Below the pieces are notes generated by a model. That model worked only from the letters and a program-made list of their open reading frames with translations. It made no database searches and had not been told where the DNA came from. The position numbers were made by a program, and so were the translations under genes. Shown piece after piece: positions 1-18,482 of a stretch of DNA of 64,000 bases. Positions within the stretch are counted from its first letter, which is position 1, and every line of letters starts with the position of its first letter. The DNA is from an uncultured bacterium (GTDB taxonomy: Bacteria; Fidelibacterota; UBA2242; JAFGTP01): positions 6,744-70,743 of the forward strand of contig CAZXFH010000001.1 in NCBI GenBank assembly GCA_964640055.1. Reading direction: 5' to 3'.

Positions 1-1057
1 GGCACCTGCTTCCAGCCGTGTGGCCACCATTGGTGGTGAAATCGCCAACAATGCCAGTGGTGTGCGTTCCATAAAATATGGTGCAGTCAGAGATTCCATC
101 CTCGGCATGAAAGTCGTCTTGGCCAACGGTGAATTAATTAATTGCGGAGCCAAAACACGGGTAGAGGCCAGTGGGTATCAGATCGACCGCCTGATGGTCG
201 GTTCTGAAGGCACATTGGGCATCATTGTTGAGGCCACTCTCAAATTTGTACCCATCCCAAAATATCGCTGTCTGGGGATTGCCAAATTCAATCAATTGGA
301 AGAGGCCGGAGATGCAATTAGTGAAATCATGTCCCAACAAATTGATTTATCTCTGCTGGAATTAATGGACAACGTAGCTATTACTGCAGTCAATAAGATT
401 CAGGACATGGGATTACCCGATGTGGAAGCTATCCTGCTTTTCGAAGCGGACGGCATGGCTCAGGCAGTTGTGGACCACTCCGTTGAGCAAGCCAAAAAGG
501 TTTGTGAAAACCATAATGGTTTTGGAATTGAGTTAAGCTATGATGCCAAAGAACGGACCCGGATTTTTGCCGGGCGCAAAAAGTTGTTTCCCTCCCTGTC
601 AAACTATAAGGAATTATATTCCTGTACTTCCCTGGCCGATGATATGGCTGTTCCCTACTCTAAAATGGCAGAAACAGCCCGAAAAATCCACGAAATTGCC
701 AAACGCAATAATGTTATCATGACGGCCTATGGACATTGCGGATCTGGCTGTATGCATACTAAAATTCTTATGGATCCCTATAAGGAAGCCCAATGGGAGG
801 ATGCCAAACAGGCGGTATTTGAAACCTATGAATATGTACGCTCCGTTGGAGGTACTACATCGGCCGAACACGGTATTGGTATTTCCAAAGCACCAGCCTT
901 CAAAAGGGAAAAATCCGATTCTCTGCGAATAATGCGGGCCTTGAAATTGGCCTTCGATCCCAATAATATCCTCAATCCCGGCAAATTAATGGATGCACCG
1001 GAAGACTGGGTTTCAGCTACCAGATTACGCTATCATGTCAAGCAAAAATTAAGTTAA
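1..1057 (+). CDS. FAD-linked oxidase, GlcD / D-2-hydroxyacid (D-lactate) dehydrogenase family; 5' end lies outside the window
   Basis: The frame is open from nt 2 (APASSRVATIGGEIANNASG...), a PCMH FAD-binding domain segment. The C-terminal ...TSAEHGIGISKAPAF matches the GlcD 'EHGIG' region. It sits tightly next to downstream Fe-S genes. Confidence 0.8.
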   Translation, partial: APASSRVATIGGEIANNASGVRSIKYGAVRDSILGMKVVLANGELINCGAKTRVEASGYQIDRLMVGSEGTLGIIVEATLKFVPIPKYRCLGIAKFNQLEEAGDAISEIMSQQIDLSLLELMDNVAITAVNKIQDMGLPDVEAILLFEADGMAQAVVDHSVEQAKKVCENHNGFGIELSYDAKERTRIFAGRKKLFPSLSNYKELYSCTSLADDMAVPYSKMAETARKIHEIAKRNNVIMTAYGHCGSGCMHTKILMDPYKEAQWEDAKQAVFETYEYVRSVGGTTSAEHGIGISKAPAFKREKSDSLRIMRALKLAFDPNNILNPGKLMDAPEDWVSATRLRYHVKQKLS

Positions 1058-1075
1058 TTATCCTGGAGAGCTAAT

Positions 1076-1636
1076 ATGGAATTTAAGCGGTTACAAAAAT
1101 GGGAAGACAAATTAAACGTATGTATCCGGTGCGGATACTGTTTTGAGCATTGTCATCTTTTTAAAACATCCCGCTGGGAAATCGACACTCCTCGTGCTAA
1201 ATTAATCCTTCTCTATGGAATATTACATGGCGAGGTCTTACCAACCGAATATTTGGCCAACAAAATCTTTGAATGTTTCTATTGCAAGCGATGTGATGAC
1301 AATTGTTCCGCCGGTGTCCCGGTTACCGAAATAATTACAGATGCCCGCGCAGATTTGATCGATGCGGGGTTTGACGTTTACGGGACCGTTTCCAAAACAG
1401 ATGATGACCGCTGTGTGCGATGCGGTATTTGTGTCTCGGTTTGCACCAAACAGGAAGCCCGTTCGATCGATTGGGAAAATAAAAAGATGTTGATCGACAG
1501 AACCAAATGCCAGAGTTGTGGCTGCTGTGAAGCCGCCTGCCCCACCGGGGCCGCATATATAGTAAAGGGTTGGGGAGTCAGTGAAGCGGAATTGAAAGAA
1601 AATGTACGTAATTTTCTGCAAGGAGCAAGCCAATGA
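1076..1636 (+). CDS. polyferredoxin-like protein with four CxxCxxCxxxC(P) [4Fe-4S] motifs
   Basis: Motifs CIRCGYCFEHC, CFYCKRCDDNC, CVRCGICVSVC and CQSCGCCEAACP. No CCG (HdrD/GlcF) domains. GGAGA Shine-Dalgarno. Overlaps the next gene by 4 nt. Confidence 0.7.
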   Translation: MEFKRLQKWEDKLNVCIRCGYCFEHCHLFKTSRWEIDTPRAKLILLYGILHGEVLPTEYLANKIFECFYCKRCDDNCSAGVPVTEIITDARADLIDAGFDVYGTVSKTDDDRCVRCGICVSVCTKQEARSIDWENKKMLIDRTKCQSCGCCEAACPTGAAYIVKGWGVSEAELKENVRNFLQGASQ

Positions 1637-2034
1637 ATGATAGCAGGACAATTGTGTTTTGTTGTAACTGGTCCTCTTATCCCGGATTACAAATGTCTAA
1701 ATATTCCGGATCAGGACCGGAGAAAAACCACCATGTTATTGTAAATATGTGTTCCGGAAGAATCTCACCGGAAATAATTATGGACGCTTTCCGCAATCAG
1801 GCGGCCGGAGTGTTAATTGCCAGCTGCCCCCTTGAAGAATGTGAACATGATGCTAACTATAAAACCCGCCGCCGCATCATGTTGTTAAAACGAATGTTAA
1901 ATCAATTTGGCATAGAACCTGAACGTATTCAGTTGGAATGGATTGATAAAGGGGAATCTCAAAAATTACAATCAGTTATCGAAGATTTTACATCTGAAAT
2001 CGATCATTTAGGACCGATTGAAACATATCAGTAA
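1633..2034 (+). CDS. mvhD: MvhD-like hydrogenase delta subunit ([2Fe-2S], methyl-viologen-reducing hydrogenase delta family)
   Basis: FCCNWSSYPG...VNMCSGRISP...GVLIASCPLEECEH matches the MvhD/FlpD signature. AGGAG Shine-Dalgarno. Confidence 0.7.
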   Translation: MNDSRTIVFCCNWSSYPGLQMSKYSGSGPEKNHHVIVNMCSGRISPEIIMDAFRNQAAGVLIASCPLEECEHDANYKTRRRIMLLKRMLNQFGIEPERIQLEWIDKGESQKLQSVIEDFTSEIDHLGPIETYQ

Positions 2035-2087
2035 TTCACTGATGTTTATTTTAATTTATAATTTTTCCTAATTAACTAGGAGGAAAA

Positions 2088-3011
2088 ATGAAAAAAGTAT
2101 CAATCATTGGTAGCGGTAATGTGGGTACAGCCACTGCCTTTTATTTAGCGGAAAAAAATGTTGCTAATATCCAGCTGATTGATATCATTGAGGGGAAAGC
2201 GGAAGGTAGCGCTCTAGATCTGGCCGAAGGTTCCCCCATACGTGGATATGATGTACTTATCAAAGGCGCTTCGGATTTTAAAGCGATAGCAGGCTCACAA
2301 GTAGTTGTTATTACCGCTGGTAAAGTCAGAAAACCAAACACTATCCGTCTCGAGCTACTAGAAGAGAACCGGAAAATTCTGGATGATATTGTCGAAAAGA
2401 TCAAGAAATACGCGCCGGAAGCAGTCGTATTGGTAGTAACTGAACCTGTCTGCACCCTAACCTATTATACCAAAGAGAAAAGTGGTTTTGATCGGTTTAA
2501 AATAATCGGAGTTGCCGGAAAACTGGATACATCCCGGGTTTGTGAATATGTGGCCAAAGCTCTGAATGTTACGCCGGTTGAAGTCTCTGCCCTGGTATTG
2601 GGCGGACATAATGAATACATGGTTATTCCGACGGAGTATATTCGGACCGGCGGTATTCCCGCAGAAGTACTCTTAGGCCGGGAAAAGATAGATGAAATTA
2701 TTACCCAAACCCGCGAAGCCGGCTCTAGGATTCTCTCTTTATTAAAAAAACAAACTTCACAATACTCACCGGCCGCTTCGATAGCAGAAACCGTTGAAGC
2801 CATTATAAGTGATACCAACGCAATTATGTGTGCCTCTGTGTGTCTGGAAGGTGAATATGGCTACAAGAATGTCTGTTTGGGTGTGCCCATCCAGATTGGC
2901 AAATCCGGTGTAAAGAAAATTATTGAGTTGGATCTATCACTTGAAGTCAAAGAAAAGTTGGATCTATCAGAGGAAACCGTGAAAAAAGCCATTGATTCAC
3001 TGGGGATATAG
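2088..3011 (+). CDS. mdh: LDH/MDH-superfamily NAD-dependent dehydrogenase, paralog 1 (Arg at the Q102/R102 specificity position, so malate-dehydrogenase-like)
   Basis: N-terminal Rossmann motif IIGSGNVGTA. Also ITAGKVRKP, LDTSR and catalytic GGHNEY. It has an unusual TEPVC in place of the TNPVD motif. Strong AGGAGG Shine-Dalgarno. Confidence 0.8.
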   Translation: MKKVSIIGSGNVGTATAFYLAEKNVANIQLIDIIEGKAEGSALDLAEGSPIRGYDVLIKGASDFKAIAGSQVVVITAGKVRKPNTIRLELLEENRKILDDIVEKIKKYAPEAVVLVVTEPVCTLTYYTKEKSGFDRFKIIGVAGKLDTSRVCEYVAKALNVTPVEVSALVLGGHNEYMVIPTEYIRTGGIPAEVLLGREKIDEIITQTREAGSRILSLLKKQTSQYSPAASIAETVEAIISDTNAIMCASVCLEGEYGYKNVCLGVPIQIGKSGVKKIIELDLSLEVKEKLDLSEETVKKAIDSLGI

Positions 3012-3020
3012 GAGGTTCAT

Positions 3021-3953
3021 ATGAAAGTAAGTATTATTGGCAGCGGTAAAGTAGGAATTTCCGCAGCGTTATATCTGGCTGAAAAAAAGGTGGCTGATTT
3101 GGTCCTTATCGATGTTGTACCCGGTTGGGCCGCAGGCAATGCTTTGGATATCGTACACTCTGCTCCGATCAGAAGATATGATATATATATTCACGGATAT
3201 GAAGACGTTTCAAAAATAACGGGATCCGATGTAGTCGTCATCACGGCCGGAAAACCCAGACTACCGGGGATGTCGCGGGAAGACTTGCTTTATGACAATA
3301 CAAAAATAATGAGTTCGATTGCGGCTGATGTTGCTAAATATGCACCCAATGCCGTTATTATTACAGTTACCAATCCATTGGATATTTTAGCCTATGTAGC
3401 CTTAAAAGTCTCTGGCTTTGCTCTTAAAAGAGTAATCGGTATGGCCGGTGTTCTCGATTCAACCCGCTTCCGTTATTTTATCGCCAGTGAACTGAAAGTA
3501 AGTCCTAAAAATGTTACAGCCTTGGTTCTGGGCGGTCATGGTGATCTAATGGTCCCCCTGCCCCGCTATTCTTCTGTCCACGGAATCCCTGTCACTGAAT
3601 TATTGTCCAAGTCAAAAATTGATAAATTGGTGGAAAGGACCCGAAAGGCCGGGGGCGAGATCGTCTCCTACCTTAAAACTGGCAGTGCCTATTGGTCGCC
3701 GGGGTGTTCCGTGGCTGAAATGGTCGAATGTATCGTACGTCACCGGCAGCGTATCATTCCTTGTTCAGCCTACTTAAGAGGAGAATATGATATTGATGGT
3801 CTATTCGCCGGTGTTCCGATAAAAATCGGTCGTAACGGTGTGGAAGAAATAATAGAATTGCCTTTGAATACCGGAGAAAAAAAGGCTTTGCATCTTTCTG
3901 CAGAAAAAGTGCGTAGCGTAATCGAGAAACTGGAAAATGAAAAACTGATTTAA
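3021..3953 (+). CDS. mdh: LDH/MDH-superfamily NAD-dependent dehydrogenase, paralog 2 (malate-dehydrogenase-like)
   Basis: IIGSGKVGIS, ITAGKPRLPGMSRED, TNPLDIL, LDSTR and GGHGD. AGGAGG Shine-Dalgarno. Confidence 0.8.
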   Translation: MKVSIIGSGKVGISAALYLAEKKVADLVLIDVVPGWAAGNALDIVHSAPIRRYDIYIHGYEDVSKITGSDVVVITAGKPRLPGMSREDLLYDNTKIMSSIAADVAKYAPNAVIITVTNPLDILAYVALKVSGFALKRVIGMAGVLDSTRFRYFIASELKVSPKNVTALVLGGHGDLMVPLPRYSSVHGIPVTELLSKSKIDKLVERTRKAGGEIVSYLKTGSAYWSPGCSVAEMVECIVRHRQRIIPCSAYLRGEYDIDGLFAGVPIKIGRNGVEEIIELPLNTGEKKALHLSAEKVRSVIEKLENEKLI

Positions 3954-5290
3954 TGCCAATTAAGATTCCGTTCTGGGGAGAAAAAATCAGTATTAATCTT
4001 CCCCAAAAAAATATAGGTGAAATAGTATATCCTAACCGGGTTGATTCGGAACCGGAAAGACAGGTAGTACTGGAATCACTCAAGAATCCGGTTGGCGCTC
4101 CGACTTTAGACAAATTTATCAAGGGAGAAGACCGGATATTATTCATCGTGAATGACGCCACCCGCCCCACGCCCACTGCCAGAATACTGGACCTTCTCTG
4201 GGATAAATTAAAGCATAAAAACATAAAATTTTTAATTGCTACGGGCATGCACCGGGAACCAACCCCGGATGAATACAGGGAAATCTTCGGTGAACGTTAT
4301 CCAATTTTAAAAAATCAGGTTTATTCCCATAACGCTCATGATGATGATCAGAATATTCACCTTGGGAAAACTGATCAGGGATCAGAACTATACTTTAACA
4401 AGCTCGTGGTAGAGACAAAAAAAATAATCTACCTGACTTCAGTTGAACCACATTATTTTGCCGGTTATACTGGTGGCGCAAAATCATTTTTACCGGGCGT
4501 GGCGGGCTATAGAACCATTACTCATAATCATGAATTGGCGCTAAAATTTTCAGCCCGGGCTCTGGAAGTCGAAAATAATCCCGTACGTAAAGATATTGCA
4601 GAAGCTTTCGTCCTTGTCTCCCAAAATAAACAAATCTTTGGTATCCAAACCGTTTTAGATAAAGATCATCGCGTTTATTACTGTGCCTGCGGGGATACCC
4701 ACAAATCTTTTGAGCTGGCTTGTGAAAAAGCCAAAGATGTCTTTTCAGTGGAAATTAAAGATAAAACTGACATAGTAGTAGCGGTTGCCCCCTATCCCAT
4801 GGATATTGATCTCTATCAATCCCAGAAAGCAATTGATAACGCCAAATTGGCCCTTAATGAAAACGGTATTCTCATTCTGGTTTCCAGTTGTCGAAAAGGG
4901 GTGGGTGACGATACTTTTGTAAAGCTGCTCAGTCAATCCAGTAATCCTGATGAAGCACTTAAAAAAATCTCTAAAGGCTATCAATTCGGTTTCCATAAAG
5001 CCTCAAAAATGGCAGAAATTATGAAATGGGCCTCAATATGGGCCTTCACCCGTTTGAATCACAATGTCCTGCAGAATATGTTCATTCAAAAATACACTTC
5101 CCTGCAAGATGCCATCGATGAGGCTCTCCAAAATAAGGGGGATGAAAGAATTCTTTTTCTGATGGATGCCAGTCTGACAGTTCCCAGAGTTGCTGACCGT
5201 CTCTTGCATAAACGCCGCTTTATACACGGACCGATGGAGAGTGAGTATGACTATAGAGATGTAACCTTGGACAATTTTTTTGCAGATTAA
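3953..5290 (+). CDS. larA: LarA-family nickel-pincer-nucleotide-dependent 2-hydroxyacid racemase/epimerase (lactate racemase-like)
   Basis: Motifs NDATRPTPT, ATGMHR, EPHYFAGYTGGAKS (the NPN-tethering Lys), HNH and YQSQKA match LarA signatures. The start overlaps the mdh stop (taATG). Confidence 0.75.
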   Translation: MPIKIPFWGEKISINLPQKNIGEIVYPNRVDSEPERQVVLESLKNPVGAPTLDKFIKGEDRILFIVNDATRPTPTARILDLLWDKLKHKNIKFLIATGMHREPTPDEYREIFGERYPILKNQVYSHNAHDDDQNIHLGKTDQGSELYFNKLVVETKKIIYLTSVEPHYFAGYTGGAKSFLPGVAGYRTITHNHELALKFSARALEVENNPVRKDIAEAFVLVSQNKQIFGIQTVLDKDHRVYYCACGDTHKSFELACEKAKDVFSVEIKDKTDIVVAVAPYPMDIDLYQSQKAIDNAKLALNENGILILVSSCRKGVGDDTFVKLLSQSSNPDEALKKISKGYQFGFHKASKMAEIMKWASIWAFTRLNHNVLQNMFIQKYTSLQDAIDEALQNKGDERILFLMDASLTVPRVADRLLHKRRFIHGPMESEYDYRDVTLDNFFAD

Positions 5291-5353
5291 ATCACAGGAT
5301 AAAAGCCGCATTTATGTTAAAAAGTAAAAATGTTTATAATAATGGAGGAATAA

Positions 5354-6355
5354 ATGGCAAAACCTAAAGTAGCATTCTACTGGTGCGCTTCTTGTGGCGG
5401 GTGTGAAGAAGCCATTGTCGATTTGAATGAAGATTTGGTTAAAGTGGCGGAGCTAGTGGAAATCGCCTTTTGGCCCTGCGCCATGGATTTTAAATACGAA
5501 GATGTTCGTAAAATGAAGACCGATGAACTGGCAGTGGCTTTTATTAATGGGGCGATTCGTACCGATGAACAGGAGGAGATGGCAAACCTCTTGCGGGAAA
5601 AAGCCCAGTTAGTGGTCTCGTTCGGGGCCTGTTCCCACATGGGCGGTATTCCTGGCTTGGGGAATTTCTGGGATCGGGAGACTATTTTTGAGTCCTCATA
5701 CGGAAAGAAGTGTCCCTCCATTGATAATCCAGACGGAATTGTGCCCCAAACCAACAGCAAGGTAAAAGAAGGTGAATTAACCCTCCCCAGCTTTCATAAT
5801 ACAGTGAAAAGTCTGGATCAAGTCGTGGATGTGGATTATTATCTACCTGGCTGTGCACCGGCTCCCTATTTAACCCTGAACGCTGTTAACGCCATTTTAG
5901 AAGGTAATCTGCCCGAAAAAGGCACGGTATTGGCTCCTGAAAAATCACTATGCGATACCTGCTCGCGCAATGAGACTAAACCCGAAAAGCTATCCATTAA
6001 GGAAATTAAAAGAATATCCCTGGCTGAAATAGACCAGGAAAAATGCTTTTTAGCCGAAGGTGTGATATGCCTTGGCCCGGCAACCCGTGCCGGATGCAGC
6101 GAGGAAGGGGACGGCCGCTGTATTGCCGCTAATATGCCCTGCCGGGGATGTTATGGTCCGCCGCCGGGGGTCGTGGATATGGGCGCTAAAATGGTATCAG
6201 CGCTTGCTTCTATCATTGGATTGGAAAATGAAGAGGAGATGGAAGAAGCAGAAGTGGCCAAATTAATAGATCAGGTCGTTGATCCGGCGGGTACTTTTTA
6301 CCGCTTCTCACTACCTGTTTCTCTGCTAAGAAGAAAAAGAATGGTAAAATCCTAA
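5354..6355 (+). CDS. mvhG: [NiFe]-hydrogenase small subunit, group 3 (MvhG-like)
   Basis: N-terminal YWCASCGGCEE proximal-cluster motif. Multiple C-terminal Cys motifs (CDTC, CLGPATRAGC, CRGC). GGAGG Shine-Dalgarno. Confidence 0.75.
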   Translation: MAKPKVAFYWCASCGGCEEAIVDLNEDLVKVAELVEIAFWPCAMDFKYEDVRKMKTDELAVAFINGAIRTDEQEEMANLLREKAQLVVSFGACSHMGGIPGLGNFWDRETIFESSYGKKCPSIDNPDGIVPQTNSKVKEGELTLPSFHNTVKSLDQVVDVDYYLPGCAPAPYLTLNAVNAILEGNLPEKGTVLAPEKSLCDTCSRNETKPEKLSIKEIKRISLAEIDQEKCFLAEGVICLGPATRAGCSEEGDGRCIAANMPCRGCYGPPPGVVDMGAKMVSALASIIGLENEEEMEEAEVAKLIDQVVDPAGTFYRFSLPVSLLRRKRMVKS

Positions 6356-6371
6356 AGGAGGATGACAATCC

Positions 6372-7835
6372 ATGACTAAAAAAATATCGATAGATCCAAT
6401 TACGAGACTTGAAGGCCATGGGAAAATCGAGATTTTCCTCGATGATAGTGGCAATGTAGATAATGCTTATTTGCAGGTACCGGAATTAAAAGGATTTGAA
6501 CAATTCTGTGTAGACCGGCCGGTTGAAGAATTACCACGTATTACCCCCCGGATTTGTGGTGTATGCCCTACCGCCCATCATATGGCTTCCACACGTACTT
6601 TAGATGCAGTGTATCATGTCAAACCTACGGAAACCGCTGAAAAAATCAGACGGCTGATTTATAACTCTTTTATGATGGAAGACCACCTGCTCCACTTCTT
6701 CTTTCTGGGGGGTCCGGATTTTGTAGTAGGACCTGACGCATCCCCGGGAGAGCGGAATATATTAGGTGTCATTGGCAAAGTAGGTCTGGAGATCGGTAAA
6801 AAAGTAATTAATGCCAGAAAAAACCTGCGTAATATTATCACTACCCTGGGTGGCCGTATTATCCATCCGGTTTGTGGATTACCTGGCGGTGTGTCACGGG
6901 GAGTAACCAAGGAAGAACGTGAAGATTTCCTGAAGGTTGCCAAAGATTCCGTTGAATTCGCCAAATTTTCACTAAAAATTTTCAATGATGTTGTCCTCGA
7001 AAATAAGACTTACCTTGATTTAATTGTGGGTGATATTTATAAACATGAAACCTACTATATGGGACTTGTGGATAAGAATAACAAGGTCAATTTTTATGAT
7101 GGCAAAATCCGCGTTGTGGATCCTGCAGGAAAAGAATACGCGAAATTTGCAGTAAAAGACTACCTTGACCACATAGCCGAACATGTGGAGCCCTGGAGTT
7201 ATATCAAATTTCCTTTCCTGAAGAAAATCGGTTGGAAAGGCTTTGAAGATGGACCGGAAAGCAGCATCTACCGGGTTGCTCCCCTAGCCCGCTTAAATGC
7301 CGCCAGTGGTATGGCCACGCCCCTTGCTCAGGAAGAGTATGAGCGGATGTTTGACACCTTGGGTGGTAAGCCCTCTCATTTTACACTGGCTTTTCACTGG
7401 GCGCGTTTAGTGGAAGTCATGTTTTGCGCTGAGCGTCTTGTTCAGTTACTCAAGGATGAGTCTATCACAGATCCTGATATCCGAAATATTCCCACAGAAA
7501 CACCCGATGAGGGGGTTGGTGTGGTGGAAGCACCTCGCGGCACTTTGATTCACCATTATCAAACTGATAAAGACGGCATTGTAACCGCTGCAAATCTAAT
7601 TGTTGCCACCGTGGCTAATTCAGCAGCCATCTCCATGTCAATTGCCAAAGCAGCCAAAAATCTGATCAAAAACGGAAAGGTTGATGACGGCATACTTAAT
7701 ATGGTAGAAATGGCCTTTCGTCCCTATGATCCCTGTCTGGCTTGTGCCACCCACTCACTACCCGGGAAAATGCCCATTATGCTTAATCTCTATGATTCTA
7801 AGGGAAATAAACTCGAAAGTATAAAAAGAGATTAA
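6372..7835 (+). CDS. mvhA: [NiFe]-hydrogenase large subunit, group 3 (MvhA-like)
   Basis: L1 motif RICGVCPTAHH and L2 motif DPCLACATH. A roughly 25-aa C-terminal extension follows the His, as expected for maturation-protease cleavage. Confidence 0.85.
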   Translation: MTKKISIDPITRLEGHGKIEIFLDDSGNVDNAYLQVPELKGFEQFCVDRPVEELPRITPRICGVCPTAHHMASTRTLDAVYHVKPTETAEKIRRLIYNSFMMEDHLLHFFFLGGPDFVVGPDASPGERNILGVIGKVGLEIGKKVINARKNLRNIITTLGGRIIHPVCGLPGGVSRGVTKEEREDFLKVAKDSVEFAKFSLKIFNDVVLENKTYLDLIVGDIYKHETYYMGLVDKNNKVNFYDGKIRVVDPAGKEYAKFAVKDYLDHIAEHVEPWSYIKFPFLKKIGWKGFEDGPESSIYRVAPLARLNAASGMATPLAQEEYERMFDTLGGKPSHFTLAFHWARLVEVMFCAERLVQLLKDESITDPDIRNIPTETPDEGVGVVEAPRGTLIHHYQTDKDGIVTAANLIVATVANSAAISMSIAKAAKNLIKNGKVDDGILNMVEMAFRPYDPCLACATHSLPGKMPIMLNLYDSKGNKLESIKRD

Positions 7836-7851
7836 TCAAAATAGAGTATCA

Positions 7852-8304
7852 ATGAAAACTCTTATCCTCGGTCTCGGTAATCCCATTCTCACCGACGACA
7901 GTGTAGGCATTCGTATTGCTCAAGAGATCAGAGCACAATGCTCTCAGCTTGATGTCACAGAAGCCAGTGCGGCTGGTTTTCGCGTAATCGATGAAATTAT
8001 CGGTTATGACAAATTACTGATTATTGATTCTATTAAAACGGGTAAAGCTGCACCCGGTACTTTATTTAAATTTAATACCGAGGATTTTAAAAATACGCTC
8101 CATTTTTCTTCTCCTCACGATATTTCCTTTTTTGATGCCATGGAAATTATGCGGGCAGAACAGGAGAAGTTACCGTCTCAAATTGCCATCTATGCTATTG
8201 AAGTACAAAACACAACCACTTTTTCGGAACAATGTACCAAGCCCGTTGAAGCTGTGATTCCGCAGGTTGCCAGACAAATAATCAGAGAGCAATCACTGGC
8301 TTAA
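7852..8304 (+). CDS. hydrogenase maturation endopeptidase (HycI/HoxW/FrhD family)
   Basis: LILGLGNPILTDDSVGIRIA matches the N-terminal family signature. About 150 aa, immediately after the large subunit. Confidence 0.75.
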   Translation: MKTLILGLGNPILTDDSVGIRIAQEIRAQCSQLDVTEASAAGFRVIDEIIGYDKLLIIDSIKTGKAAPGTLFKFNTEDFKNTLHFSSPHDISFFDAMEIMRAEQEKLPSQIAIYAIEVQNTTTFSEQCTKPVEAVIPQVARQIIREQSLA

Positions 8305-8362
8305 TCCAATTGATATGGAACAGAATAAATATAATCACCTTTAAAATATAGCAAAGGAGAAA

Positions 8363-10057
8363 TTGATGAACCAAGAAAACATGAACCGCTGGCAGGTTGA
8401 TGCGAAAGGCTTGAACTATTTTCCAATAGTCAAAAGAGGACTGGAAATCATCCGGGACCCTTTACTAAATAAAGGAACCGCTTTTTCCAAGCGTGAACGG
8501 GATGAGCTGGGCTTGCAAGGCCTGGTACCGCCGCACCAATCAACTGTGGAGGAACAATTAAAGCGGGTTAAAGGTAACTATGAGCGGAAAAATACAGATA
8601 TTGGTAAATATATATTCTTAGAGGCCTTACATGACCGTAACGAAAACCTTTACTATCGGTTATTACTGGAAAATTTAGAAGAGATGACTCCCATTGTTTA
8701 TACTCCTACCGTTGGTCAAGCCTGTCAGGAATATGGTAATATCTATCGAAGAGCCAGGGGAATGTATATTGCTTCCCATATGAGAGGAAAAATTGATAAA
8801 TGCATCAGAAACTGGCCCGAAGATAATATTGATGTGATTGTTGTAACTGATGGCAGCCGCATACTGGGATTGGGTGATTTAGGGGCAAGCGGGATCGGAA
8901 TTCCTATCGGAAAGTTATCGCTTTACGTGGCTTGCGCCGGCATATATCCTTCAAAAACCCTGCCCATTGTCATTGATGTAGGGACTAATAATGAGAAATT
9001 CTTAAAGGATCCCCTCTATTTGGGAGAGCGTCATCCCCGTCTGACGGGTGATGAATATTTTGATCTTATTGACGAATTTATATCTGCCGCCCATCGGCGC
9101 TGGCCTAAAGCACTAATCCAATTTGAAGACTTTACCAATGATAATGCCTTTAAATTACTGGAAAGGTACCGTTATAAATTGTTGTCTTTCAACGATGATA
9201 TTCAGGGAACGGGCGGAGTAGCCTTAGCCGGATTACTGGCCTCTCTAAGGATAACCAAAGAAAAACTAACCGATCAACGCATCGTATTTTTAGGAGCGGG
9301 TTCAGCAGCAGTAGGTATCGCAGATATGATCGTGGCCGGAATGCAGGAAGAAGGGCTTAGCAATAAAGAAGCACGTGAACGATTTTGGTTCCTGGATAGC
9401 AAAGGTCTGGTTACGCACCAACGCAAAGATAAATTAGCCGAACATAAATTACCCTATGCTCGTAAAGAGAAGTTTATCAAAACCCTGGTAGATGTGGTGG
9501 ATGCAGTAAAACCTACTGTATTAATTGGAGTCAGTAAACAACCGGGCGCCTTCAATGAAAATGTTATTAAAACAATGCAAAAACATGTAGAGCACCCCAT
9601 CATCTTTGCGCTTTCAAATCCCACTTCCAAATCTGAATGCACAGCTCAACAAGCCTATGAGTGGACAAATGGTAAGGTAATCTTTGCCAGTGGCAGTCCT
9701 TTTAAACCGGTCACCTATAAAGGAACGACCTATGAAATCGGACAAGGAAATAATATGTATATTTTTCCGGGCGTTGGTCTGGGCGCTGTGGCTTGTCGGG
9801 CGATAAAGATAACCGACTCTATGTTCTACGCCGGTGCGAAAGCCTTGGCTGAACTTGTAGACCAAAAAACCTTGAATAAAGGCAAAGTATATCCTGACTT
9901 AAAAAACATTAGAGACATCTCTGCTGAAATTGCTACTGCAGTTTGTCGGGTCGCTTATGCGGAAGGATTAGCCTGGGAAAAAGAACCAGAAGATATAAAT
10001 GAATTCGTAAAAAGCAAAACCTACAATCCAATTTATTTACCCTATAAAGCAATCTAA
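8363..10057 (+). CDS. maeA: NAD-dependent malic enzyme (large, eukaryote-like form)
   Basis: N-terminal LNKGTAFSKRERDELGLQGLVPP and the FNDDIQGTGGVALAG and LGAGSAAVGIA motifs. 564 aa. Confidence 0.85.
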   Translation: MMNQENMNRWQVDAKGLNYFPIVKRGLEIIRDPLLNKGTAFSKRERDELGLQGLVPPHQSTVEEQLKRVKGNYERKNTDIGKYIFLEALHDRNENLYYRLLLENLEEMTPIVYTPTVGQACQEYGNIYRRARGMYIASHMRGKIDKCIRNWPEDNIDVIVVTDGSRILGLGDLGASGIGIPIGKLSLYVACAGIYPSKTLPIVIDVGTNNEKFLKDPLYLGERHPRLTGDEYFDLIDEFISAAHRRWPKALIQFEDFTNDNAFKLLERYRYKLLSFNDDIQGTGGVALAGLLASLRITKEKLTDQRIVFLGAGSAAVGIADMIVAGMQEEGLSNKEARERFWFLDSKGLVTHQRKDKLAEHKLPYARKEKFIKTLVDVVDAVKPTVLIGVSKQPGAFNENVIKTMQKHVEHPIIFALSNPTSKSECTAQQAYEWTNGKVIFASGSPFKPVTYKGTTYEIGQGNNMYIFPGVGLGAVACRAIKITDSMFYAGAKALAELVDQKTLNKGKVYPDLKNIRDISAEIATAVCRVAYAEGLAWEKEPEDINEFVKSKTYNPIYLPYKAI

Positions 10058-10185
10058 GTAGCGGAGTATATTCAAATGTTTTTAACTAAATAATTAATAT
10101 TATTCAATGATTAAATACCGGGAATTTAAAATAATTCAATGGCTGAGGCTATATATATTAAACAAAATTAATTAAGGGGGTAATT

Positions 10186-11913
10186 ATGTCAAGCTTACCA
10201 AGTTATCAATTTTATGATGACATAAAAGAAATGTCACCTCCACGGGCAATCGCAGAAACGATCATGTTAAATCCTAAGATACGTAAAGTCACTCCGGCAG
10301 AGGCCTATGAGATGGCCTTGAAACAGCCAGGCATTGCCGTAACCGATCTTGACATCTATCCACCTTTTGCAGAAAAATTAGGCCTACCTCACGGTTCGAA
10401 AGTACTCAATGATTGTCATGGAAAAATTATTGGACGCACAGCAAAAGCACGTCGCTTTTATAATCGTATCTCAGAAAGTGAAAAGCACAAAGTAGAGGGT
10501 GATTTACGGGAGGCGGTCTATCAGATAGAACATTACGAGCTGATTAAAGCCGAAGCGGTCCTGGGTCTTGATCCCGATTTGATGCTGAAAGCCACTTTTA
10601 TTACAACTGCCGGCGATGCCAACAATATGTTCAACTGGTTGACTAATTTCGCACCTTTTGACCTGATGGCTGAAAAATATGCAAATAGTAATCCCTTACC
10701 TATTCAGGACATTATTATAGTGGCCTTTAATGATTGGACCTGCGAAGATCCTTATTACCATAATGTAGGCGCCCCCCAATTAGCACTAGTCGATGAAAAA
10801 CATAATGTGATCTTTAACTTGGGAATGCGTTATTTTGGTGAACGTAAAAAAGGCACCCTCACCCTGGCCTGGACATCAGGAATGCGTCTGGGAATGGCCG
10901 CCTGTCATGGCGGAATAAAAGAAATCGACTTTTCTGACTGTGCGCCCCAGCATAAACAGCTGGGTAAGAAATCTATTGCCTTTTTCGGCCTGTCAGGAAC
11001 GGGTAAATCCTCACACACTAATTCACCGGATAACGGAGGTACATTACCCGAAGGATTTAAAAAAGCGGTTTTACATGATGATGCCTTCCAGATTGATCCG
11101 AAGGATAAAGTCTGCCGTGTCTGGGAACCATCTCTATTCGATAAAACCGACAGTCGCGGACTCGAACATCCGGAATGGAAATATGCGCTGGCCTTGATGA
11201 ATCATGCCCTTTTAGAAGTGAATGATACCCTCCTACCCCTTGGACTGGATGTGCGGCAAGGTAACGGTCGCGCCTTGTTCGATAGAGACCTGCTAGGTAA
11301 ATGGGTTAACAAATGTACTTTCCCGACTGCCTTAGCTTGGCTAATGAAAGATACTGTTCTACCACCAGTGATCAAATATAATAATAAATACCTGGCGGTG
11401 GCGATGGGTGCTGCTCTGATCACCAAGCGAACCCGGGCTGAAAACGTTACCGAAGAAGAACTTAATAAATTGGTGTTCGAACCTTTTGCCAATCCTTTCC
11501 GAGTTTACGAACTATATAAAGATGTGGAAGCTTTTATAAAGGTCCTGGAAACCGGTGCGGACTGTTACACCTTCAATTCATCCGGTTTCTGGAAGTATTC
11601 AGATCATGATCTGGATGACATTAAACTCCAAACCTCATTGACTATTCAGACAGGCATTCTTACGGATCAATTAGAATGGGAAGATTGGGATCTCCTACCC
11701 GGAGCCATGATTCCCACTAAAGACAGTATTGACCAGCTCATTCCGGGATATTATGAAAAATATCATCCCCGAGATCGAAAACATATGAATATATACATTA
11801 ATACCCTCAAAGACCGTTTTAAACAGCGTCAAGACTTCCTGAAATCCTCTGATCTTAGCACAAAGCCAAAACTGCTGGAAAAATTAGCGGATGCCCTTAA
11901 AATCAAAGCATAA
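10186..11913 (+). CDS. pckA: phosphoenolpyruvate carboxykinase (ATP), divergent
   Basis: Kinase-1a FFGLSGTGKSS and YFGERKKG (PEPCK Y-GE-KKG) motifs. AGGGGG Shine-Dalgarno. Confidence 0.65.
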   Translation: MSSLPSYQFYDDIKEMSPPRAIAETIMLNPKIRKVTPAEAYEMALKQPGIAVTDLDIYPPFAEKLGLPHGSKVLNDCHGKIIGRTAKARRFYNRISESEKHKVEGDLREAVYQIEHYELIKAEAVLGLDPDLMLKATFITTAGDANNMFNWLTNFAPFDLMAEKYANSNPLPIQDIIIVAFNDWTCEDPYYHNVGAPQLALVDEKHNVIFNLGMRYFGERKKGTLTLAWTSGMRLGMAACHGGIKEIDFSDCAPQHKQLGKKSIAFFGLSGTGKSSHTNSPDNGGTLPEGFKKAVLHDDAFQIDPKDKVCRVWEPSLFDKTDSRGLEHPEWKYALALMNHALLEVNDTLLPLGLDVRQGNGRALFDRDLLGKWVNKCTFPTALAWLMKDTVLPPVIKYNNKYLAVAMGAALITKRTRAENVTEEELNKLVFEPFANPFRVYELYKDVEAFIKVLETGADCYTFNSSGFWKYSDHDLDDIKLQTSLTIQTGILTDQLEWEDWDLLPGAMIPTKDSIDQLIPGYYEKYHPRDRKHMNIYINTLKDRFKQRQDFLKSSDLSTKPKLLEKLADALKIKA

Positions 11914-11947
11914 TTTTTCAAACTCACCACTTATTGAGTTTGAAAAA
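11914..11947 (+). terminator. perfect 13-bp inverted repeat (TTTTTCAAACTCA-N8-TGAGTTTGAAAAA) directly after the pckA stop; intrinsic terminator or regulator-binding palindrome
   Basis: All 13 positions pair. The stem is AT-rich and the downstream T-run is weak. Confidence 0.4.
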
Positions 11948-12206
11948 TTGGGCATATCATAACGGACCATTGTTCATAATCACCATTACGGGAATCTATG
12001 GGCTCAACACATAAAATATTTAATTATTATAATTTGGAAGTTAATTATTTCAAGCAATAATATTTGAACGTAAATTGAAGCCGGTTTGTACCTTTATTCA
12101 TTACTAAATTTTTACTTTATTATTAATTCCCTTTTATTTATTTTATACTCAGAATTATGTTATAACGATAGTATTATTTTTAATTAATTAATCAGGGGAG
12201 GACGAA

Positions 12207-13508
12207 ATGTCGACACTAAGAACCAAGCTAAGTAAGCAGATTCCCGCAACCCGTAAAAAAATCCGTAAAGTCGTTAAAGCACACAAGGATGTGATTGTCA
12301 GCACGGTTAATGTAAAGCAGGTCTACGGTGGCATGCGGGGTGTAGTGGGTTTGGTCTGCAACACTTCCTATGTTGATCCCCATCAGGGTTTGATTATTAG
12401 GGGCATACCGGTTAATGATTTGACCGATAAATTGCCTGAAGAAGTCTTTTTCCTTTTGTCAACCGGTGATCTACCGTCAAAAAATGATTTAAAGGATCTT
12501 CAAGAGGAGCTGAATCTGCGTGCAGAAGTACCGGATCATGTCTGGGATATCTTACTTGCCATGCCCCGGGATTCCCATCCTATGACAATGCTGAGTACGG
12601 CTATTTTGGCTTTAGAAAATGGCTCTATTTTCAAAGAAAAATATTCAGCCGGATTAAGAAAAGCTGATTTTTGGGAAGCGACCCTTGATGACTGTTTAGA
12701 ATTAATCGGGAAATTACCTTCTATCGCCGCCGGTATTTACCGGATCCGTTTTGCCAAGGGTGAACTGATTCCCTATGACCCCTCCCTGGATTGGGGTGCT
12801 AACTATGCCCATATGTTAGGCATACCTGATCCCAATGGTGAATTTGCGGATTTAATGCGTTTATATCTAGTCCTCCATTGTGACCATGAAGGGGGTAATG
12901 TGAGTGCCTTTACTTCCCAGGTCGTCAACTCAGCCTTATCCAATATCTATTATGCCACCTCGGCTGGTTTGAATGGTCTGGCCGGGCCTCTCCATGGATT
13001 AGCTAATCAGGAATGTTTAAAATTCGTCCATTCGATTCATGAAAAGTTCCATGGGGTACCTACTAAAAAAGAGTTGGCAGAATTTGTTTGGTCAACTTTA
13101 AACCTTGGTAAAGTAGTACCCGGATATGGTCATGCTGTGCTCCGGGCCACCGATCCCAGGTTTACGGCATTCCATAAATTTGGTGACCAATATTGTAAGG
13201 ATGATGATGTATTTCAAATTGTCAGTAGACTATTTGAAATCGTACCCGGAATATTAAAAGAATACGGTGGCGGTAAAGTTGCAGATCCCTATCCCAATGT
13301 AGATGCTATCTCCGGATGCTTGTTACATCATTATGGATTGACCATGTTCGACTATTACACGGTTCTTTTTGGGGTATCCCGCATTTTGGGCTTTTGTGCT
13401 CAGGCGATTCTGGCCCGCGGATTACAAGCACCTATTATCAGGCCAAAAACAGTAACCAATGAATGGATCGAAGAAAAAATAAAAGAGGCAACCAAAAAGA
13501 AAAAATAA
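12207..13508 (+). CDS. gltA: citrate synthase, eukaryote/mitochondrial-like type I
   Basis: VYGGMRG..., GYGHAVLRATDPR and HCDHEGGNVSA motifs. GGGGAGG Shine-Dalgarno. Confidence 0.85.
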   Translation: MSTLRTKLSKQIPATRKKIRKVVKAHKDVIVSTVNVKQVYGGMRGVVGLVCNTSYVDPHQGLIIRGIPVNDLTDKLPEEVFFLLSTGDLPSKNDLKDLQEELNLRAEVPDHVWDILLAMPRDSHPMTMLSTAILALENGSIFKEKYSAGLRKADFWEATLDDCLELIGKLPSIAAGIYRIRFAKGELIPYDPSLDWGANYAHMLGIPDPNGEFADLMRLYLVLHCDHEGGNVSAFTSQVVNSALSNIYYATSAGLNGLAGPLHGLANQECLKFVHSIHEKFHGVPTKKELAEFVWSTLNLGKVVPGYGHAVLRATDPRFTAFHKFGDQYCKDDDVFQIVSRLFEIVPGILKEYGGGKVADPYPNVDAISGCLLHHYGLTMFDYYTVLFGVSRILGFCAQAILARGLQAPIIRPKTVTNEWIEEKIKEATKKKK

Positions 13509-13530
13509 AGGAAAGGAAAAGCAAACCGCT

Positions 13531-15465: not shown

Positions 15466-15498
15466 TTATAATCATCATAGGGACTGGAAGGAGCTATT

Positions 15499-16845
15499 AT
15501 GACCTTTAAGAAGTTACAGGAACCCCAGGAGGGTACCAGGATAACCATCCAAAATGGTACAGTTGTAACGCCGGATAATCCCATTATTCCGTTTATCGAA
15601 GGAGATGGGATCGGACCGGATATCTGGCGCGCCACACGAAATATCGTCGATGCGGCGGTCAATAAAATGTACCAGGAACAAAAGAAAATTATCTGGTTTC
15701 AAATTCATGCGGGGCTCTCCGCCCTAAAAAATTATGGTAACGACGATGTCCTACCGGACGATACAATTGAGGCTATTAAAAATTATAAGATTGCAATTAA
15801 AGGGCCTTTAACTACACCCGTTGGTAGATTCGCCTATGTCTGTTTAAAATGTGCTAAAGAACAAGACGGGGAGAATGACAAACGTCCGGTTAAGTGTATT
15901 AAGTGTGGTTCAGAATTTGTAACCCCGCGTTTCCGTTCACTAAATGTTGGTTTGCGTCAAATATTAGATCTGTATGCCTGTGTCCGTCCAGTGCGCTGGT
16001 ACCGCGGCGTTCCCTGTCCGGTAAAACATCCCGAAAAGCTGGATGTGGTCGTATTCAGGGAAAATACAGAAGATGTTTATGCTGGTATTGAATTTGAAGA
16101 AGGATCAAATGAAGCCTTAAAAATCATTGATTTTTTACATCAAGAAATGAATTCTGTAATTTTAAAAGATAGTGGAATTGGAATAAAACCAATTTCTGTG
16201 ACTCGTACAAAACGACTGGTACGCAAAGCGATTGATTATGCCATTGCGCATCATAAACCCAATGTTACGCTCGTCCATAAAGGTAATATTATGAAATTTA
16301 CAGAGGGTGCCTTTCGGGATTGGGGATATGATGTGGCTAAAACTGAGTACCGGGATCAAATTATTACGGAAAATGAACTATGGGATGAATGCAACGGTCA
16401 AATCCCTCAGGGAAAAATCCTGCTTAAAGATAGAATTGCCGATCAGATGTTTCAACAAGTTTTACTGCGTCCGGATGAATACAGTGTAATCGCAACACCC
16501 AATCTAAATGGTGACTATCTATCAGATGCCTGTGCCGCTCAGGTGGGCGGCCTGGGGATTGCTCCGGGTGCTAACCTGGGTGATAAAATTGCCTTGTTCG
16601 AAGCCACGCATGGTACCGCACCTAAATATACTGGCATGGACAAAGTCAATCCTAGTTCGCTGATCCTTTCCAGTGTCATGATGCTGAATCATATCGGTTG
16701 GAGAGAAGCGGCTCAGGTTATCGAAACTGCCTTGGAAACCACTATTTCAAATAAGACAGTAACCTATGATTTGGAACGTCAAATGACCGGTGCTGTAAAA
16801 CTACAGACCTCTGAATTTAGCCAACAGATTATCGAAAACATGTAG
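15499..16845 (+). CDS. icd: NADP-dependent isocitrate dehydrogenase (prokaryotic Icd type) with an inserted CxxC-x13-CxxC element
   Basis: Collinear with Icd throughout ([53 protein letters not shown]). About 30 extra residues follow KGPLTTPVG. Confidence 0.85.
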
Positions 16846-16860
16846 ATGTGGGAGATTATT

Positions 16861-17532: not shown

Positions 17533-17556
17533 TAAACAAAAATAGATAATATTATT

Positions 17557-18147: not shown

Positions 18148-18173
18148 ACAGGTCGGTTTCCCAGAATACAACC

Positions 18174-18473
18174 ATGCAGCTGATCATCACAATATCTAAA
18201 ATCAAAGGACATTGTCCTGTTTATGCAATTGGTGATAAGATCGTCTTGGATCAGGGCTACCAAGTAAACCTTAACCAAACCGATAACATCTGTATGCACT
18301 CCCTGGGTGCAATTCTCCCTTACTACAATGCCTTGGCCAAAGGTATTCGACCTCAAGCACTCGGACTTAATAATGACGATTCAAACCGGGCTTTTGTACA
18401 ATGCTCGGATCCCTGCGAATATACGGATGGCGGAACCGTCATTTTTGAAATTAAAGCGGTTAACTGCAAGTAA
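18174..18473 (+). CDS. small Cys-rich protein, TIGR04076-like
   Basis: GHCPVYAIGDKIVLD..., C.HSLGAILPY and CSDPCE resemble the TIGR04076 family pattern. Confidence 0.45.
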   Translation: MQLIITISKIKGHCPVYAIGDKIVLDQGYQVNLNQTDNICMHSLGAILPYYNALAKGIRPQALGLNNDDSNRAFVQCSDPCEYTDGGTVIFEIKAVNCK

Positions 18474-18482
18474 TGGTTTAAA

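Follow-up and report, generated by a model that had tools for sequence, protein, structure and literature searches.

The 64,000-nucleotide stretch of DNA analysed here (hereafter the window) derives from an uncultured bacterium of the Fidelibacterota (assembly GCA_964640055.1, contig CAZXFH010000001.1, positions 6,744 to 70,743), and begins with nine genes transcribed rightwards. Their products are a GlcD-type flavin adenine dinucleotide (FAD)-dependent dehydrogenase, a polyferredoxin (Fdx), an MvhD connector subunit, two malate dehydrogenase (MDH) paralogues (MdhA and MdhB), a LarA-family racemase, the small (MvhG) and large (MvhA) subunits of a [NiFe] hydrogenase, and a hydrogenase maturation endopeptidase (Table 1). 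We propose, with a probability of about one half, that these genes specify a D-malate/oxaloacetate redox module that carries MvhD as a plug and docks to a modular group 3c hydrogenase. The conserved core of the module consists of GlcD, polyferredoxin, MvhD and LarA, and the association of the genes is well beyond chance, their content recurring in dozens of genomes from several phyla.

In the proposed mechanism GlcD, the polyferredoxin with its four [4Fe-4S] clusters, and MvhD would constitute a single FAD- and metal-dependent D-malate:acceptor oxidoreductase, with MvhD as the plug that docks the GlcD-Fdx unit onto MvhG-MvhA. LarA would racemise malate, a reaction needed because GlcD-type flavoenzymes are D-specific, whereas fumarase, the two nicotinamide adenine dinucleotide (NAD)-linked MDH paralogues and malic enzyme use L-malate. 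The net reaction, oxaloacetate + H2 <-> D-malate <-> L-malate, would provide an NAD-independent route for the malate/oxaloacetate couple.

Conservation of the GlcD module and the linked hydrogenase

Conservation was assessed with BLAST gene maps of 80 loci from GTDB species genomes, each holding a GlcD orthologue of 69-84% identity. The orthogroup is represented in Cloacimonadota, WOR-3, TA06, Stahlbacteria, Fermentibacteria, Coatesbacteria, KSB1, Marinimicrobia, Spirochaetia, Myxococcota and many Desulfobacterales, and includes the isolate Desulfocicer vacuolatum DSM 3385, which has a core of GlcD, an Fdx-MvhD fusion and LarA. Fdx adjoins glcD in 69 of 72 loci, MvhD is present in 49 of 67 (as a separate gene in 24 and fused to Fdx in 25), and LarA in 34 of the 47 loci that extend for 3 kb or more in both directions. 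The fusion is one protein of 309-334 residues encoded beside GlcD, with LarA adjacent too in Desulfobacterales and Spirochaetia loci, and it also occurs in locus L038 of WOR-3 and in L027. A third class of loci has a GlcF-like partner with Fer4_8 and CCG domains in place of the Fdx-MvhD pair.

The order glcD-fdx-mvhD-mvhG-mvhA is contiguous in at least five phyla (Cloacimonadota, Fermentibacteria, Coatesbacteria, KSB1, Marinimicrobia and others), with a gap of ~4-13 nt between mvhD and mvhG where these abut. No HdrA match lies within 8-10 kb in the hydrogenase-linked GlcD loci L034, L040, L042 and L084, and Pfam searches of the unassigned open reading frames (ORFs) of L034, L040, L055 and L084 recovered no HdrA-like flavoprotein. 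A preliminary description of this DNA had proposed that a GlcD-type flavoenzyme and a ferredoxin are wired through MvhD to the hydrogenase; the synteny across phyla, the four loci with no HdrA nearby and the naturally occurring Fdx-MvhD fusions all favour that proposal. The synteny that it called for is found in gene content, and the exact order is a feature of this lineage: the MDH-MDH-LarA segment separates mvhD from mvhG only in the window and in L001/L085, with mvhD abutting mvhG elsewhere. In most Cloacimonadota this segment lies ~6 kb downstream, after sucCD and fumarase genes, and its placement within the hydrogenase operon of the window is thus a local rearrangement.

The hydrogenase large subunit contains the motifs RICGVCPTAH towards its N-terminus and DPCLACATH towards its C-terminus, which conform to the nickel-binding patterns RxCGxC and DPCxxCxxH, together with a C-terminal extension of the kind removed during maturation. 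Its best relatives of solved structure are MvhA (5odc_F, E 5e-122) and 7t2r_D (E 2e-120), with far weaker matches to group 1 NiFeSe enzymes (3e-38), Frh (~3e-30) and sulfhydrogenase 1 of group 3b (~1e-28); the best NCBIfam match is VhuA, at 426 bits against a cut-off of 800. These comparisons place the enzyme in group 3c, Mvh type, as had been expected. Most MvhA homologues in the range of 70-84% identity come from Cloacimonadota metagenome-assembled genomes (MAGs). Among relatives at 72-75% identity the partner is always attached through MvhD: an HdrA-MvhD fusion in TA06 (L086), NuoE/NuoF/HydA-type subunits plus MvhD in Aminicenantes (L087, MvhA 73%), and 2-oxoacid:ferredoxin oxidoreductase (OFOR)-HdrCBA-MvhD in a 3.9-Mb genome (L088, MvhA 75% identical to that of the window). 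In all three the gene just before mvhD encodes the hydrogenase partner, the place that Fdx and GlcD hold in the GlcD loci. As judged from these contexts, the group 3c hydrogenase is a module that can be swapped between partners. The idea of a hydrogenase clade reserved for GlcD was considered and rejected, since MvhA proteins 72-75% identical to that of the window occur with Hdr or NuoEF.

The polyferredoxin falls into two halves. Pfam identifies Fer4_8/Fer4_17 at residues 13-81 and Fer4_7 at residues 112-159, and in NCBIfam residues 10-95 match an HdrC model and residues 101-161 an HdrA2 model; the N-terminal half is HdrC/GlcF-like and the C-terminal half resembles the C-terminal ferredoxin domain of HdrA (5odc_A, residues 560-631). 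The same C-terminal half and the MvhD that follows (MvhD2) match consecutive stretches of HdrA2-type HdrA-MvhD fusions (model positions 567-624 and 649-775). MvhD2 has MvhD 5odc_D as its best solved relative (E 1e-29), with the Cys motifs kept, and mvhD directly precedes mvhG in most relatives. Because of the domain matches and the Fdx-MvhD fusions, the most economical reading is that of a single electron wire, running from FAD through four [4Fe-4S] clusters and the [2Fe-2S] cluster to the MvhG clusters and the [NiFe] site.

Several of the loci include further genes in or beside the module. In D. vacuolatum (L079:7795-13380) genes for a MetV-like protein and MetF (methylenetetrahydrofolate reductase) lie directly upstream of those for GlcD, the Fdx-MvhD fusion and LarA, with oxaloacetate decarboxylase beta, malic enzyme and pyruvate:ferredoxin oxidoreductase genes farther upstream. 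MetFV forms complexes with HdrABC-MvhD in Moorella, and by analogy MvhD may link the MetFV and GlcD units in this locus. A recurrent block of five to six genes upstream of SucCD/Frd-GlcD (L005:1694-6987, L018:1730-7021, L026:1400-6687) encodes MvhD, two HdrA-like proteins (~430 and ~565 residues) and two unassigned proteins (~370-395 residues), an Hdr-like assembly distinct from HdrABC. A WOR-3 locus (L028:7938-8375) has a glycine-cleavage H-protein (lipoyl carrier, PF01597) between mvhA and larA and beside Hdr-like genes, recalling the lipoate-binding proteins of sulfur-oxidising sHdr systems. The Fermentibacteria locus (L040:7133-9454) has, between malic enzyme and glcD, a gene for a 773-residue fusion of a cyclic-nucleotide-binding domain, acetate kinase and a PTAC phosphotransacylase domain. 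One Cloacimonadota species has a 111-residue nucleotidyltransferase (NTP_transf_2/Polbeta) encoded between mvhG and mvhA (L002:9588-9923, also L003, L004 and L016), and one Cloacimonadota MAG has an unassigned ORF of 636 residues between glcD and fdx (L015:11082-12992).

Racemase signature and the substrate of the flavoenzyme

The best match of LarA among solved structures is the malate racemase Mar2 (6d6z, E 4e-62). In NCBIfam the closest model is LarAH6 (NF052593, 365 bits against a cut-off of 500), followed by LarAH5 (NF052595, 281 against 462), and we therefore call the protein malate-racemase (MAR)-type rather than a member of LarAH5/6. At the positions of W358 and T359 of LarA1 it has His-Lys, its GFHKAS aligning with GAHKAA of Mar2; H/Q followed by K at these positions is the MAR specificity signature, with W-E/Q in lactate racemases and H/Q-T in 2-hydroxyglutarate racemases (PMC11770544). 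The His-Lys signature is present in all GlcD-linked LarA copies, the sole exception in the set being a second LarA paralogue in L052. The segments ATGMHR, EPHYFAGYTGGAKS and NDATRPTP, which cover the catalytic His and the region of the Lys that binds the nickel-pincer nucleotide (NPN), are conserved across 53 aligned sequences. None of the lar maturation genes (larB/C/E) is present in the 64-kb window. Papers on LarA mention GlcD-type (COG0277) and FeS (COG0247) neighbours in general terms and leave the in vivo roles open.

GlcD scores below all NCBIfam equivalog cut-offs, with 289 bits against 568 for TIGR00387 and lower values for other models, scores that are depressed by the partial query; a full-length orthologue reaches only 253 bits against LctD. 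By these scores GlcD represents a distinct orthogroup rather than a member of the GlcD glycolate oxidase, YdiJ, D-2-hydroxyglutarate dehydrogenase (D2HGDH) or LctD equivalogs. Its closest solved relatives are glycolate oxidase (9qgz) and LctD (7qh2_C). When mapped on human D2HGDH (6lpn), with residue roles taken from PMC7801405, it keeps the equivalents of R386, Y432, H434, H441 and E475/H476, among them the metal ligands His/His/Glu as well as the catalytic His and the C1-carboxylate-binding Arg, and both the FAD_binding_4 and FAD-oxidase_C domains are present. The motif YGHCGSGCMHTK is invariant in 85 of 85 orthologues and places a Lys at the position of human D2HGDH N443, a residue that contacts the distal carboxylate of the substrate (PMC7801405); LctD, LDHD and glycolate oxidase have a hydrophobic residue there. 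T390 and K401 of D2HGDH are replaced in GlcD as they are in D-lactate dehydrogenase (D-LDH)/GlcD (PMC7801405), and GlcD-family D2HGDHs do oxidise D-malate (PMC7801405, PMC10034468).

The genes around the module encode two MDHs, malic enzyme, phosphoenolpyruvate (PEP) carboxykinase, fumarase, SucCD, fumarate reductase (Frd) and citrate synthase, and among the neighbours of the examined GlcD loci there is never a lactate permease or glycolate gene. Taken with the racemase signature and the invariant Lys, these neighbours indicate that the substrate of GlcD is probably D-malate. The range offered in the preliminary description (lactate, malate or another 2-hydroxyacid) can be narrowed to malate. 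A lactate racemase/D-lactate dehydrogenase pair is rejected on the grounds of the His-Lys signature, the Mar2 match and the gene neighbours, and a GlcDEF glycolate oxidase is rejected for lack of a GlcE and in view of the sub-cut-off scores and the different partner.

GlcD of the window also has two cysteines in its metal-binding loop (AYGHCGSGCMHTK, ~nt 700-740), which reads HCGSGCMH as against HAGDGNLH in relatives. Of these cysteines the first is invariant in the 85 orthologues and the second is present in 82 of 85; a redox switch and an extra metal ligand are candidate roles.

The two MDH paralogues differ in their matches. MdhA passes the PRK06223 MDH subfamily cut-off, is below the TIGR01763 equivalog cut-off, and has Arg at the position of lactate dehydrogenase Q102 (GKVRKPNTIR) with GGH and LD..R kept; MdhB scores 400 bits with TIGR01763 (cut-off 351.85) and has the MDH-type Arg in GKPRLPGMSR. 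The pair, divergent MdhA and canonical MdhB, is conserved directly upstream of LarA with catalytic residues kept in Cloacimonadota (also in L002) and in WOR-3, where the tandem MdhA-MdhB-LarA unit is found in L049, L052 and L063. It possibly constitutes a heteromeric MDH, or two cofactor or substrate specificities.

Probable upstream Hdr genes, reaction direction and alternative explanations

The closest relative of the cluster (L085, MvhA 84% identical) shares its gene order, down to the MDH-MDH-LarA segment that separates mvhD from mvhG, and in it hdrA-mvhD-hdrC-hdrB-frdB-frdA lies directly 5' of glcD. The complete order in this relative is fumarase alpha/beta, a hypothetical protein, a ferredoxin, a CBS protein, and two alpha/beta pairs plus gamma of 2-oxoacid:ferredoxin oxidoreductase; HdrA (646 residues), MvhD, HdrC, HdrB, an FrdB-like protein (Fer2/Fer4) and an FrdA-like protein (551 residues); and GlcD, Fdx, MvhD, MdhA, MdhB, LarA, MvhG, MvhA, the protease, malic enzyme, PEP carboxykinase and citrate synthase. 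An HdrA (P0244, 85% identical) and an HdrB-like protein (P0122, 71% identical) have a contig signature equal to that of three proteins encoded in the window. From the relative and this signature, hdrA-mvhD-hdrCB-frdBA very probably lies just upstream of nt 1, and the apparent lack of Hdr is very probably an artefact of the window edge, which cuts the locus. The preliminary description saw no Hdr here and regarded a complete hdrABC immediately upstream as grounds for a conventional Hdr-Mvh system; such genes are very probably present, and the upstream HdrA-MvhD-HdrCB-FrdBA unit, which resembles a thiol:fumarate reductase (Tfr) plus Hdr, very probably uses this hydrogenase as well in the lineage of the window. 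Even with Hdr so placed, the cluster is probably not just a conventional Hdr-Mvh.

Standard potentials (E0') are -172 mV for oxaloacetate/malate, -414 mV for H+/H2, +33 mV for fumarate/succinate, ~-450 mV for ferredoxin and -140 mV for the heterodisulfide. The malate/oxaloacetate couple is thus near the heterodisulfide couple, and electron transfer from H2 to oxaloacetate is exergonic by ~47 kJ/mol. Formation of H2 from succinate is infeasible even with co-oxidation of ferredoxin, which leaves H2 uptake as the only sensible mode for the Frd-Hdr-Mvh arm. In addition, the genes present parallel the reductive branch found in methanogens (MDH, fumarase, Tfr, SucCD and 2-oxoglutarate:ferredoxin oxidoreductase). 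For these two reasons we lean, by a little, towards H2 uptake, i.e. a reductive C4 branch, in this lineage. The GlcD and fumarate arms could then be high-potential partners of HdrA-based electron bifurcation, which would feed reduced ferredoxin to the neighbouring 2-oxoacid:ferredoxin oxidoreductases. The H2 evolution by a syntroph envisaged in the preliminary description is unsupported; sequence does not reveal the direction, and the fumarate reductase/Hdr setting points, in the case of that arm at least, to H2 uptake.

The same complex could instead operate oxidatively, in line with the preliminary description, with L-malate racemised, D-malate oxidised by GlcD and the electrons leaving as H2. 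This would happen while C4 acids, propionate or amino acids are oxidised syntrophically or fermentatively, with H2 released directly if its level is very low, or else through HdrA by confurcation of reduced ferredoxin. We regard this as possible but rather unlikely. The lactate racemase, GlcD-type LctD and EtfAB of acetogens run oxidatively with co-oxidation of ferredoxin (7qh2; PMC5640608), Cloacimonadota are widely considered to be fermenters or propionate oxidisers, and the Fermentibacteria locus L040 ties the module to malic enzyme and the acetate kinase-PTAC fusion. H2 formation from malate requires extreme H2 scavenging or co-oxidation of reduced ferredoxin; malate and reduced ferredoxin average ~-310 mV, calculated from standard potentials, which allows it below ~10-30 Pa H2. 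Against it, the reaction from malate to oxaloacetate and H2 costs +47 kJ/mol without confurcation and is marginal even at 1 Pa H2 with an oxaloacetate/malate ratio of 1e-3 to 1e-4, while four hydrogenase-linked loci have no HdrA nearby. The adjacent Frd-Hdr unit cannot plausibly run towards H2, and the characterised group 3c enzymes, those of methanogens, oxidise H2.

Alternatively, the hydrogenase could be part of a conventional Mvh-Hdr system with a thiol:fumarate-reductase-like unit, in which GlcD, Fdx, MvhD2, the MDHs and LarA are co-regulated pathway neighbours and GlcD-Fdx-MvhD2 passes its electrons to HdrA or another acceptor. The hdrA-mvhD-hdrC-hdrB genes upstream in L085, L002, L015 and L016, the contig signature shared by the HdrA and HdrB orthologues with the window proteins, and the literature readings of the cluster (PMC8542988, PMC12590816) fit this explanation, as do the GlcD-(Fdx-MvhD)-LarA loci of sulfate reducers with no hydrogenase nearby and the finding that MvhA relatedness does not track the partner. 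We nonetheless judge it unlikely, as glcD-fdx-mvhD-mvhG-mvhA is contiguous with tiny gaps in at least five phyla, loci lacking Hdr included; in all sampled contexts the gene before mvhD encodes the hydrogenase partner (HdrA, a HydA-like protein, or here Fdx-GlcD); and a second, dedicated MvhD would be needless if only HdrA-MvhD1 bound the hydrogenase.

That the flavoenzyme and racemase act on a different 2-hydroxyacid (D-lactate, glycolate, D-2-hydroxyglutarate or tartrate) is improbable: the solved relatives of GlcD, the replacement of T390 and K401 (PMC7801405), the epimerisation of tartrate by malate racemases (PMC11770544) and the sub-cut-off scores of both proteins would permit it, but the malate-racemase-specific His-Lys pair in all GlcD-linked LarA, the match to Mar2, the Lys at the N443 position and the consistent malate/oxaloacetate neighbours, never lactate permease or glycolate genes, speak for malate.

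The reading of the cluster as a D-malate/oxaloacetate module docked to the hydrogenase has a number of points weighing against it. About a quarter of the GlcD loci have the GlcF-like Fer4_8+CCG partner and lack MvhD, and in this lineage the MDH-MDH-LarA segment parts mvhD from mvhG. Sulfate-reducer loci with MvhD mostly have no hydrogenase nearby, and MvhD may therefore dock to partners other than MvhG. The MvhA of the Hdr-linked L088 (75%) is closer to that of the window than are those of GlcD loci lacking Hdr (67%). Neither GlcD nor LarA reaches its NCBIfam equivalog cut-off, and the candidate D-malate activity of GlcD is deduced from neighbours and one residue. A stand-alone H2:oxaloacetate reductase would waste ~47 kJ/mol, and the closest functional analogue, LctBCD with lactate racemase, is oxidative, which by analogy argues against the direction that we favour.

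A more general scheme, which we consider doubtful, is that a widespread NAD-independent malate/oxaloacetate module, made up of malate racemase, FAD D-malate dehydrogenase and polyferredoxin-MvhD plug, replaces HdrBC as a high-potential arm of HdrA bifurcation in Cloacimonadota, beside the fumarate arm. H2 would drive both reductive C4 steps, each covering the cost of one reduced ferredoxin for the adjacent 2-oxoacid:ferredoxin oxidoreductases, and malate racemases would be given a physiological role.

Extent of the cluster and relationship to known systems

Domains were assigned with Pfam and NCBIfam models using curated cut-offs, and these confirm the identity of each of the nine forward-strand genes, which lie at the coordinates first described. 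The GlcD ORF is open at the window edge and its N-terminus is encoded upstream. Intergenic gaps across the nine genes are 18, -4, 53, 9, -1, 63, 16 and 16 nt, in agreement with the 0-63 nt and two overlaps reported earlier, the mvhD start overlapping the fdx stop codon by 4 nt. The cluster end originally set at 8304 is arbitrary, as seven further co-directional genes extend to 18147 (~18150), of which the last two, after isocitrate dehydrogenase, encode a tetratricopeptide repeat protein and a flavin mononucleotide reductase; the remainder of the window has housekeeping genes on the opposite strand. The nine genes are the middle of a supercluster of more than 30 kb for C4-dicarboxylate and tricarboxylic acid (TCA) cycle metabolism. 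A consensus promoter and terminator scan of nt 1-18500 returned 40 promoter-like sites, where shuffled sequence would give 43.8, and 17 terminator-like sites, where it would give 19.8, and operon structure is therefore suggested by spacing and synteny only.

Table 1. Features of the hydrogenase-linked gene cluster in the window, with the matches on which each assignment is based.
Feature	Position	Strand	Matches
GlcD/VAO-family FAD-dependent D-2-hydroxyacid dehydrogenase, C-terminal 351 residues	2-1057 (feature listed as 1..1057)	+	PF02913 E 9e-58, PF01565
Polyferredoxin, 186 residues, four CX2CX2CX3C motifs (4 x [4Fe-4S])	1076-1636	+	Fer4_8/Fer4_17, Fer4_7
MvhD ([2Fe-2S] connector subunit), second copy MvhD2, attached to GlcD-Fdx	1633-2034	+	PF02662 E 1e-37
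MdhA, divergent NAD-type malate dehydrogenase paralogue	2088-3011	+	Ldh_1_N/C; PRK06223
MdhB, malate dehydrogenase	3021-3953	+	Ldh_1_N/C; TIGR01763
LarA-family nickel-pincer (NPN) racemase, malate-racemase type	3953-5290	+	PF09861/PF21113 (Lar_N/LarA_C)
MvhG, [NiFe] hydrogenase small subunit	5354-6355	+	PF01058 (Oxidored_q6); VhuG best NCBIfam model, E 5e-53
MvhA, [NiFe] hydrogenase large subunit, group 3c type	6372-7835	+	NiFeSe_Hases; VhuA model E 1e-127
Hydrogenase maturation endopeptidase (HycI)	7852-8304	+	PF01750; TIGR00072 104 bits vs cut-off 47
NAD-type malic enzyme, same co-directional run	8363-10057	+	PF00390, PF03949; PRK13529 779 bits
ATP-dependent PEP carboxykinase	10186-11913	+	74% identity to L001 orthologue, which carries PF01293
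Citrate synthase	12207-13508	+	PF00285
Aconitase	13531-15465	+	PF00330/PF00694
Isocitrate dehydrogenase	15499-16845	+	PF00180

Citrate synthase rather than ATP-citrate lyase is encoded ahead of aconitase and isocitrate dehydrogenase in this run (12207-16845), on the same strand as the hydrogenase, and a reductive cycle here, if there is one, would have to be the citrate-synthase-dependent ('reversed oxidative') variant. At the other end of the window (61817-63986, forward strand), in a region of local GC rise, a 154-residue ORF is followed by a 598-residue NuoF-family protein (TIGR01959, E 1e-132) that reaches the window edge. A bifurcating [FeFe] hydrogenase of HydABC/Hnd type, or else an NAD-linked formate dehydrogenase, could begin here, and the genome, one of a 'NiFe' clade, would in that event have a second H2/NADH module.

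The hydrogenase subunits most closely resemble those of the MvhADG-HdrABC complex of hydrogenotrophic methanogens (5ODC), with which the cluster shares clear homologues of MvhA, MvhG and MvhD, the mvhD-mvhG-mvhA order kept in most relatives, HdrA, HdrC and HdrB encoded nearby in the lineage of the window, and a polyferredoxin beside the hydrogenase, like methanogen MvhB. It differs in that the host is bacterial, with no coenzyme M/coenzyme B heterodisulfide expected, a second MvhD is associated with a GlcD flavoenzyme and a four-cluster ferredoxin, and fumarate reductase subunits are encoded beside HdrCB; in other phyla the GlcD module accompanies the hydrogenase where Hdr is lacking. A large subunit almost as similar as MvhA is that of the electron-bifurcating [NiFe] hydrogenase HydABCSL of Acetomicrobium mobile (7T2R), and the Aminicenantes relative lies in such a NuoEF-type context with MvhD; the partner there is a NADH/ferredoxin flavoprotein set and not a 2-hydroxyacid dehydrogenase.

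The logic of the module is that of LctBCD/Etf with the lactate racemase LctF (LarA) of Acetobacterium woodii and Clostridium ljungdahlii (7QH2; PMC5640608), in which a racemase supplies a D-specific FAD dehydrogenase of the GlcD family, and a dedicated electron partner lets a couple near -180 mV bypass direct NAD+ reduction; among solved structures LctD ranks first or second in similarity to GlcD. Here, in contrast, the substrate is probably malate and not lactate, the partner is polyferredoxin plus MvhD rather than EtfAB, and the terminal partner would be a [NiFe] hydrogenase (and possibly HdrA) and not NAD+, with bifurcation or confurcation only proposed. GlcD passes electrons to an HdrC/GlcF-type dicluster domain in GlcDEF glycolate oxidase and archaeal HdrD/GlcD units (PMC10667645), as would be the case here, and a Fer4_8+CCG partner is still seen in the quarter of orthologous loci noted above; in the window a second 2x[4Fe-4S] ferredoxin domain, followed by MvhD, stands in place of the CCG domain, and the linked racemase is malate-type. 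LarA shares with Mar2/LarAH6 of Thermoanaerobacterium thermosaccharolyticum (6D6Z; PMC7583248, PMC11770544) the context of the catalytic His pair, the NPN-binding Lys region and the His-Lys pair, but its score below the LarAH6 cut-off places it in a separate MAR-type clade, and its placement with a flavoenzyme and a hydrogenase suggests a physiological role.

A cluster of TCA cycle, thiol:fumarate reductase, Mvh and Hdr genes is already in print for Ca. Celaenobacter and other marine (Clade B) Cloacimonadota, where it has been interpreted as an H2-driven reverse TCA cycle (PMC8542988), as propionate oxidation (bioRxiv 10.1101/2025.11.11.687785) and as MvhADG-HdrABC bifurcation (PMC12590816). 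Its content is the same (Frd/Tfr, 2-oxoacid:ferredoxin oxidoreductase, fumarase, SucCD, group 3c Mvh and Hdr), the window differing in its citrate synthase beside aconitase and isocitrate dehydrogenase. GlcD, the polyferredoxin, the second MvhD and LarA go unmentioned in those papers, and a literature search, with most subscription journals outside its reach, found no description of a GlcD-polyferredoxin-MvhD-LarA module.

If the proposal is correct, malate racemases, the largest branch of the LarA superfamily, would gain a role in bridging the L-malate pool to a D-specific flavoenzyme, group 3c hydrogenases would have a new electron partner, and MvhD would be a general docking plug rather than one specific to Hdr. 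Anaerobes with the module would skirt the thermodynamically awkward NAD-linked malate/oxaloacetate step, in parallel with the lactate/Etf solution of acetogens, and its presence would help to tell H2-driven reductive TCA metabolism from propionate oxidation in marine Cloacimonadota. The occurrence of the core in the cultured D. vacuolatum DSM 3385 makes the biochemistry directly testable.

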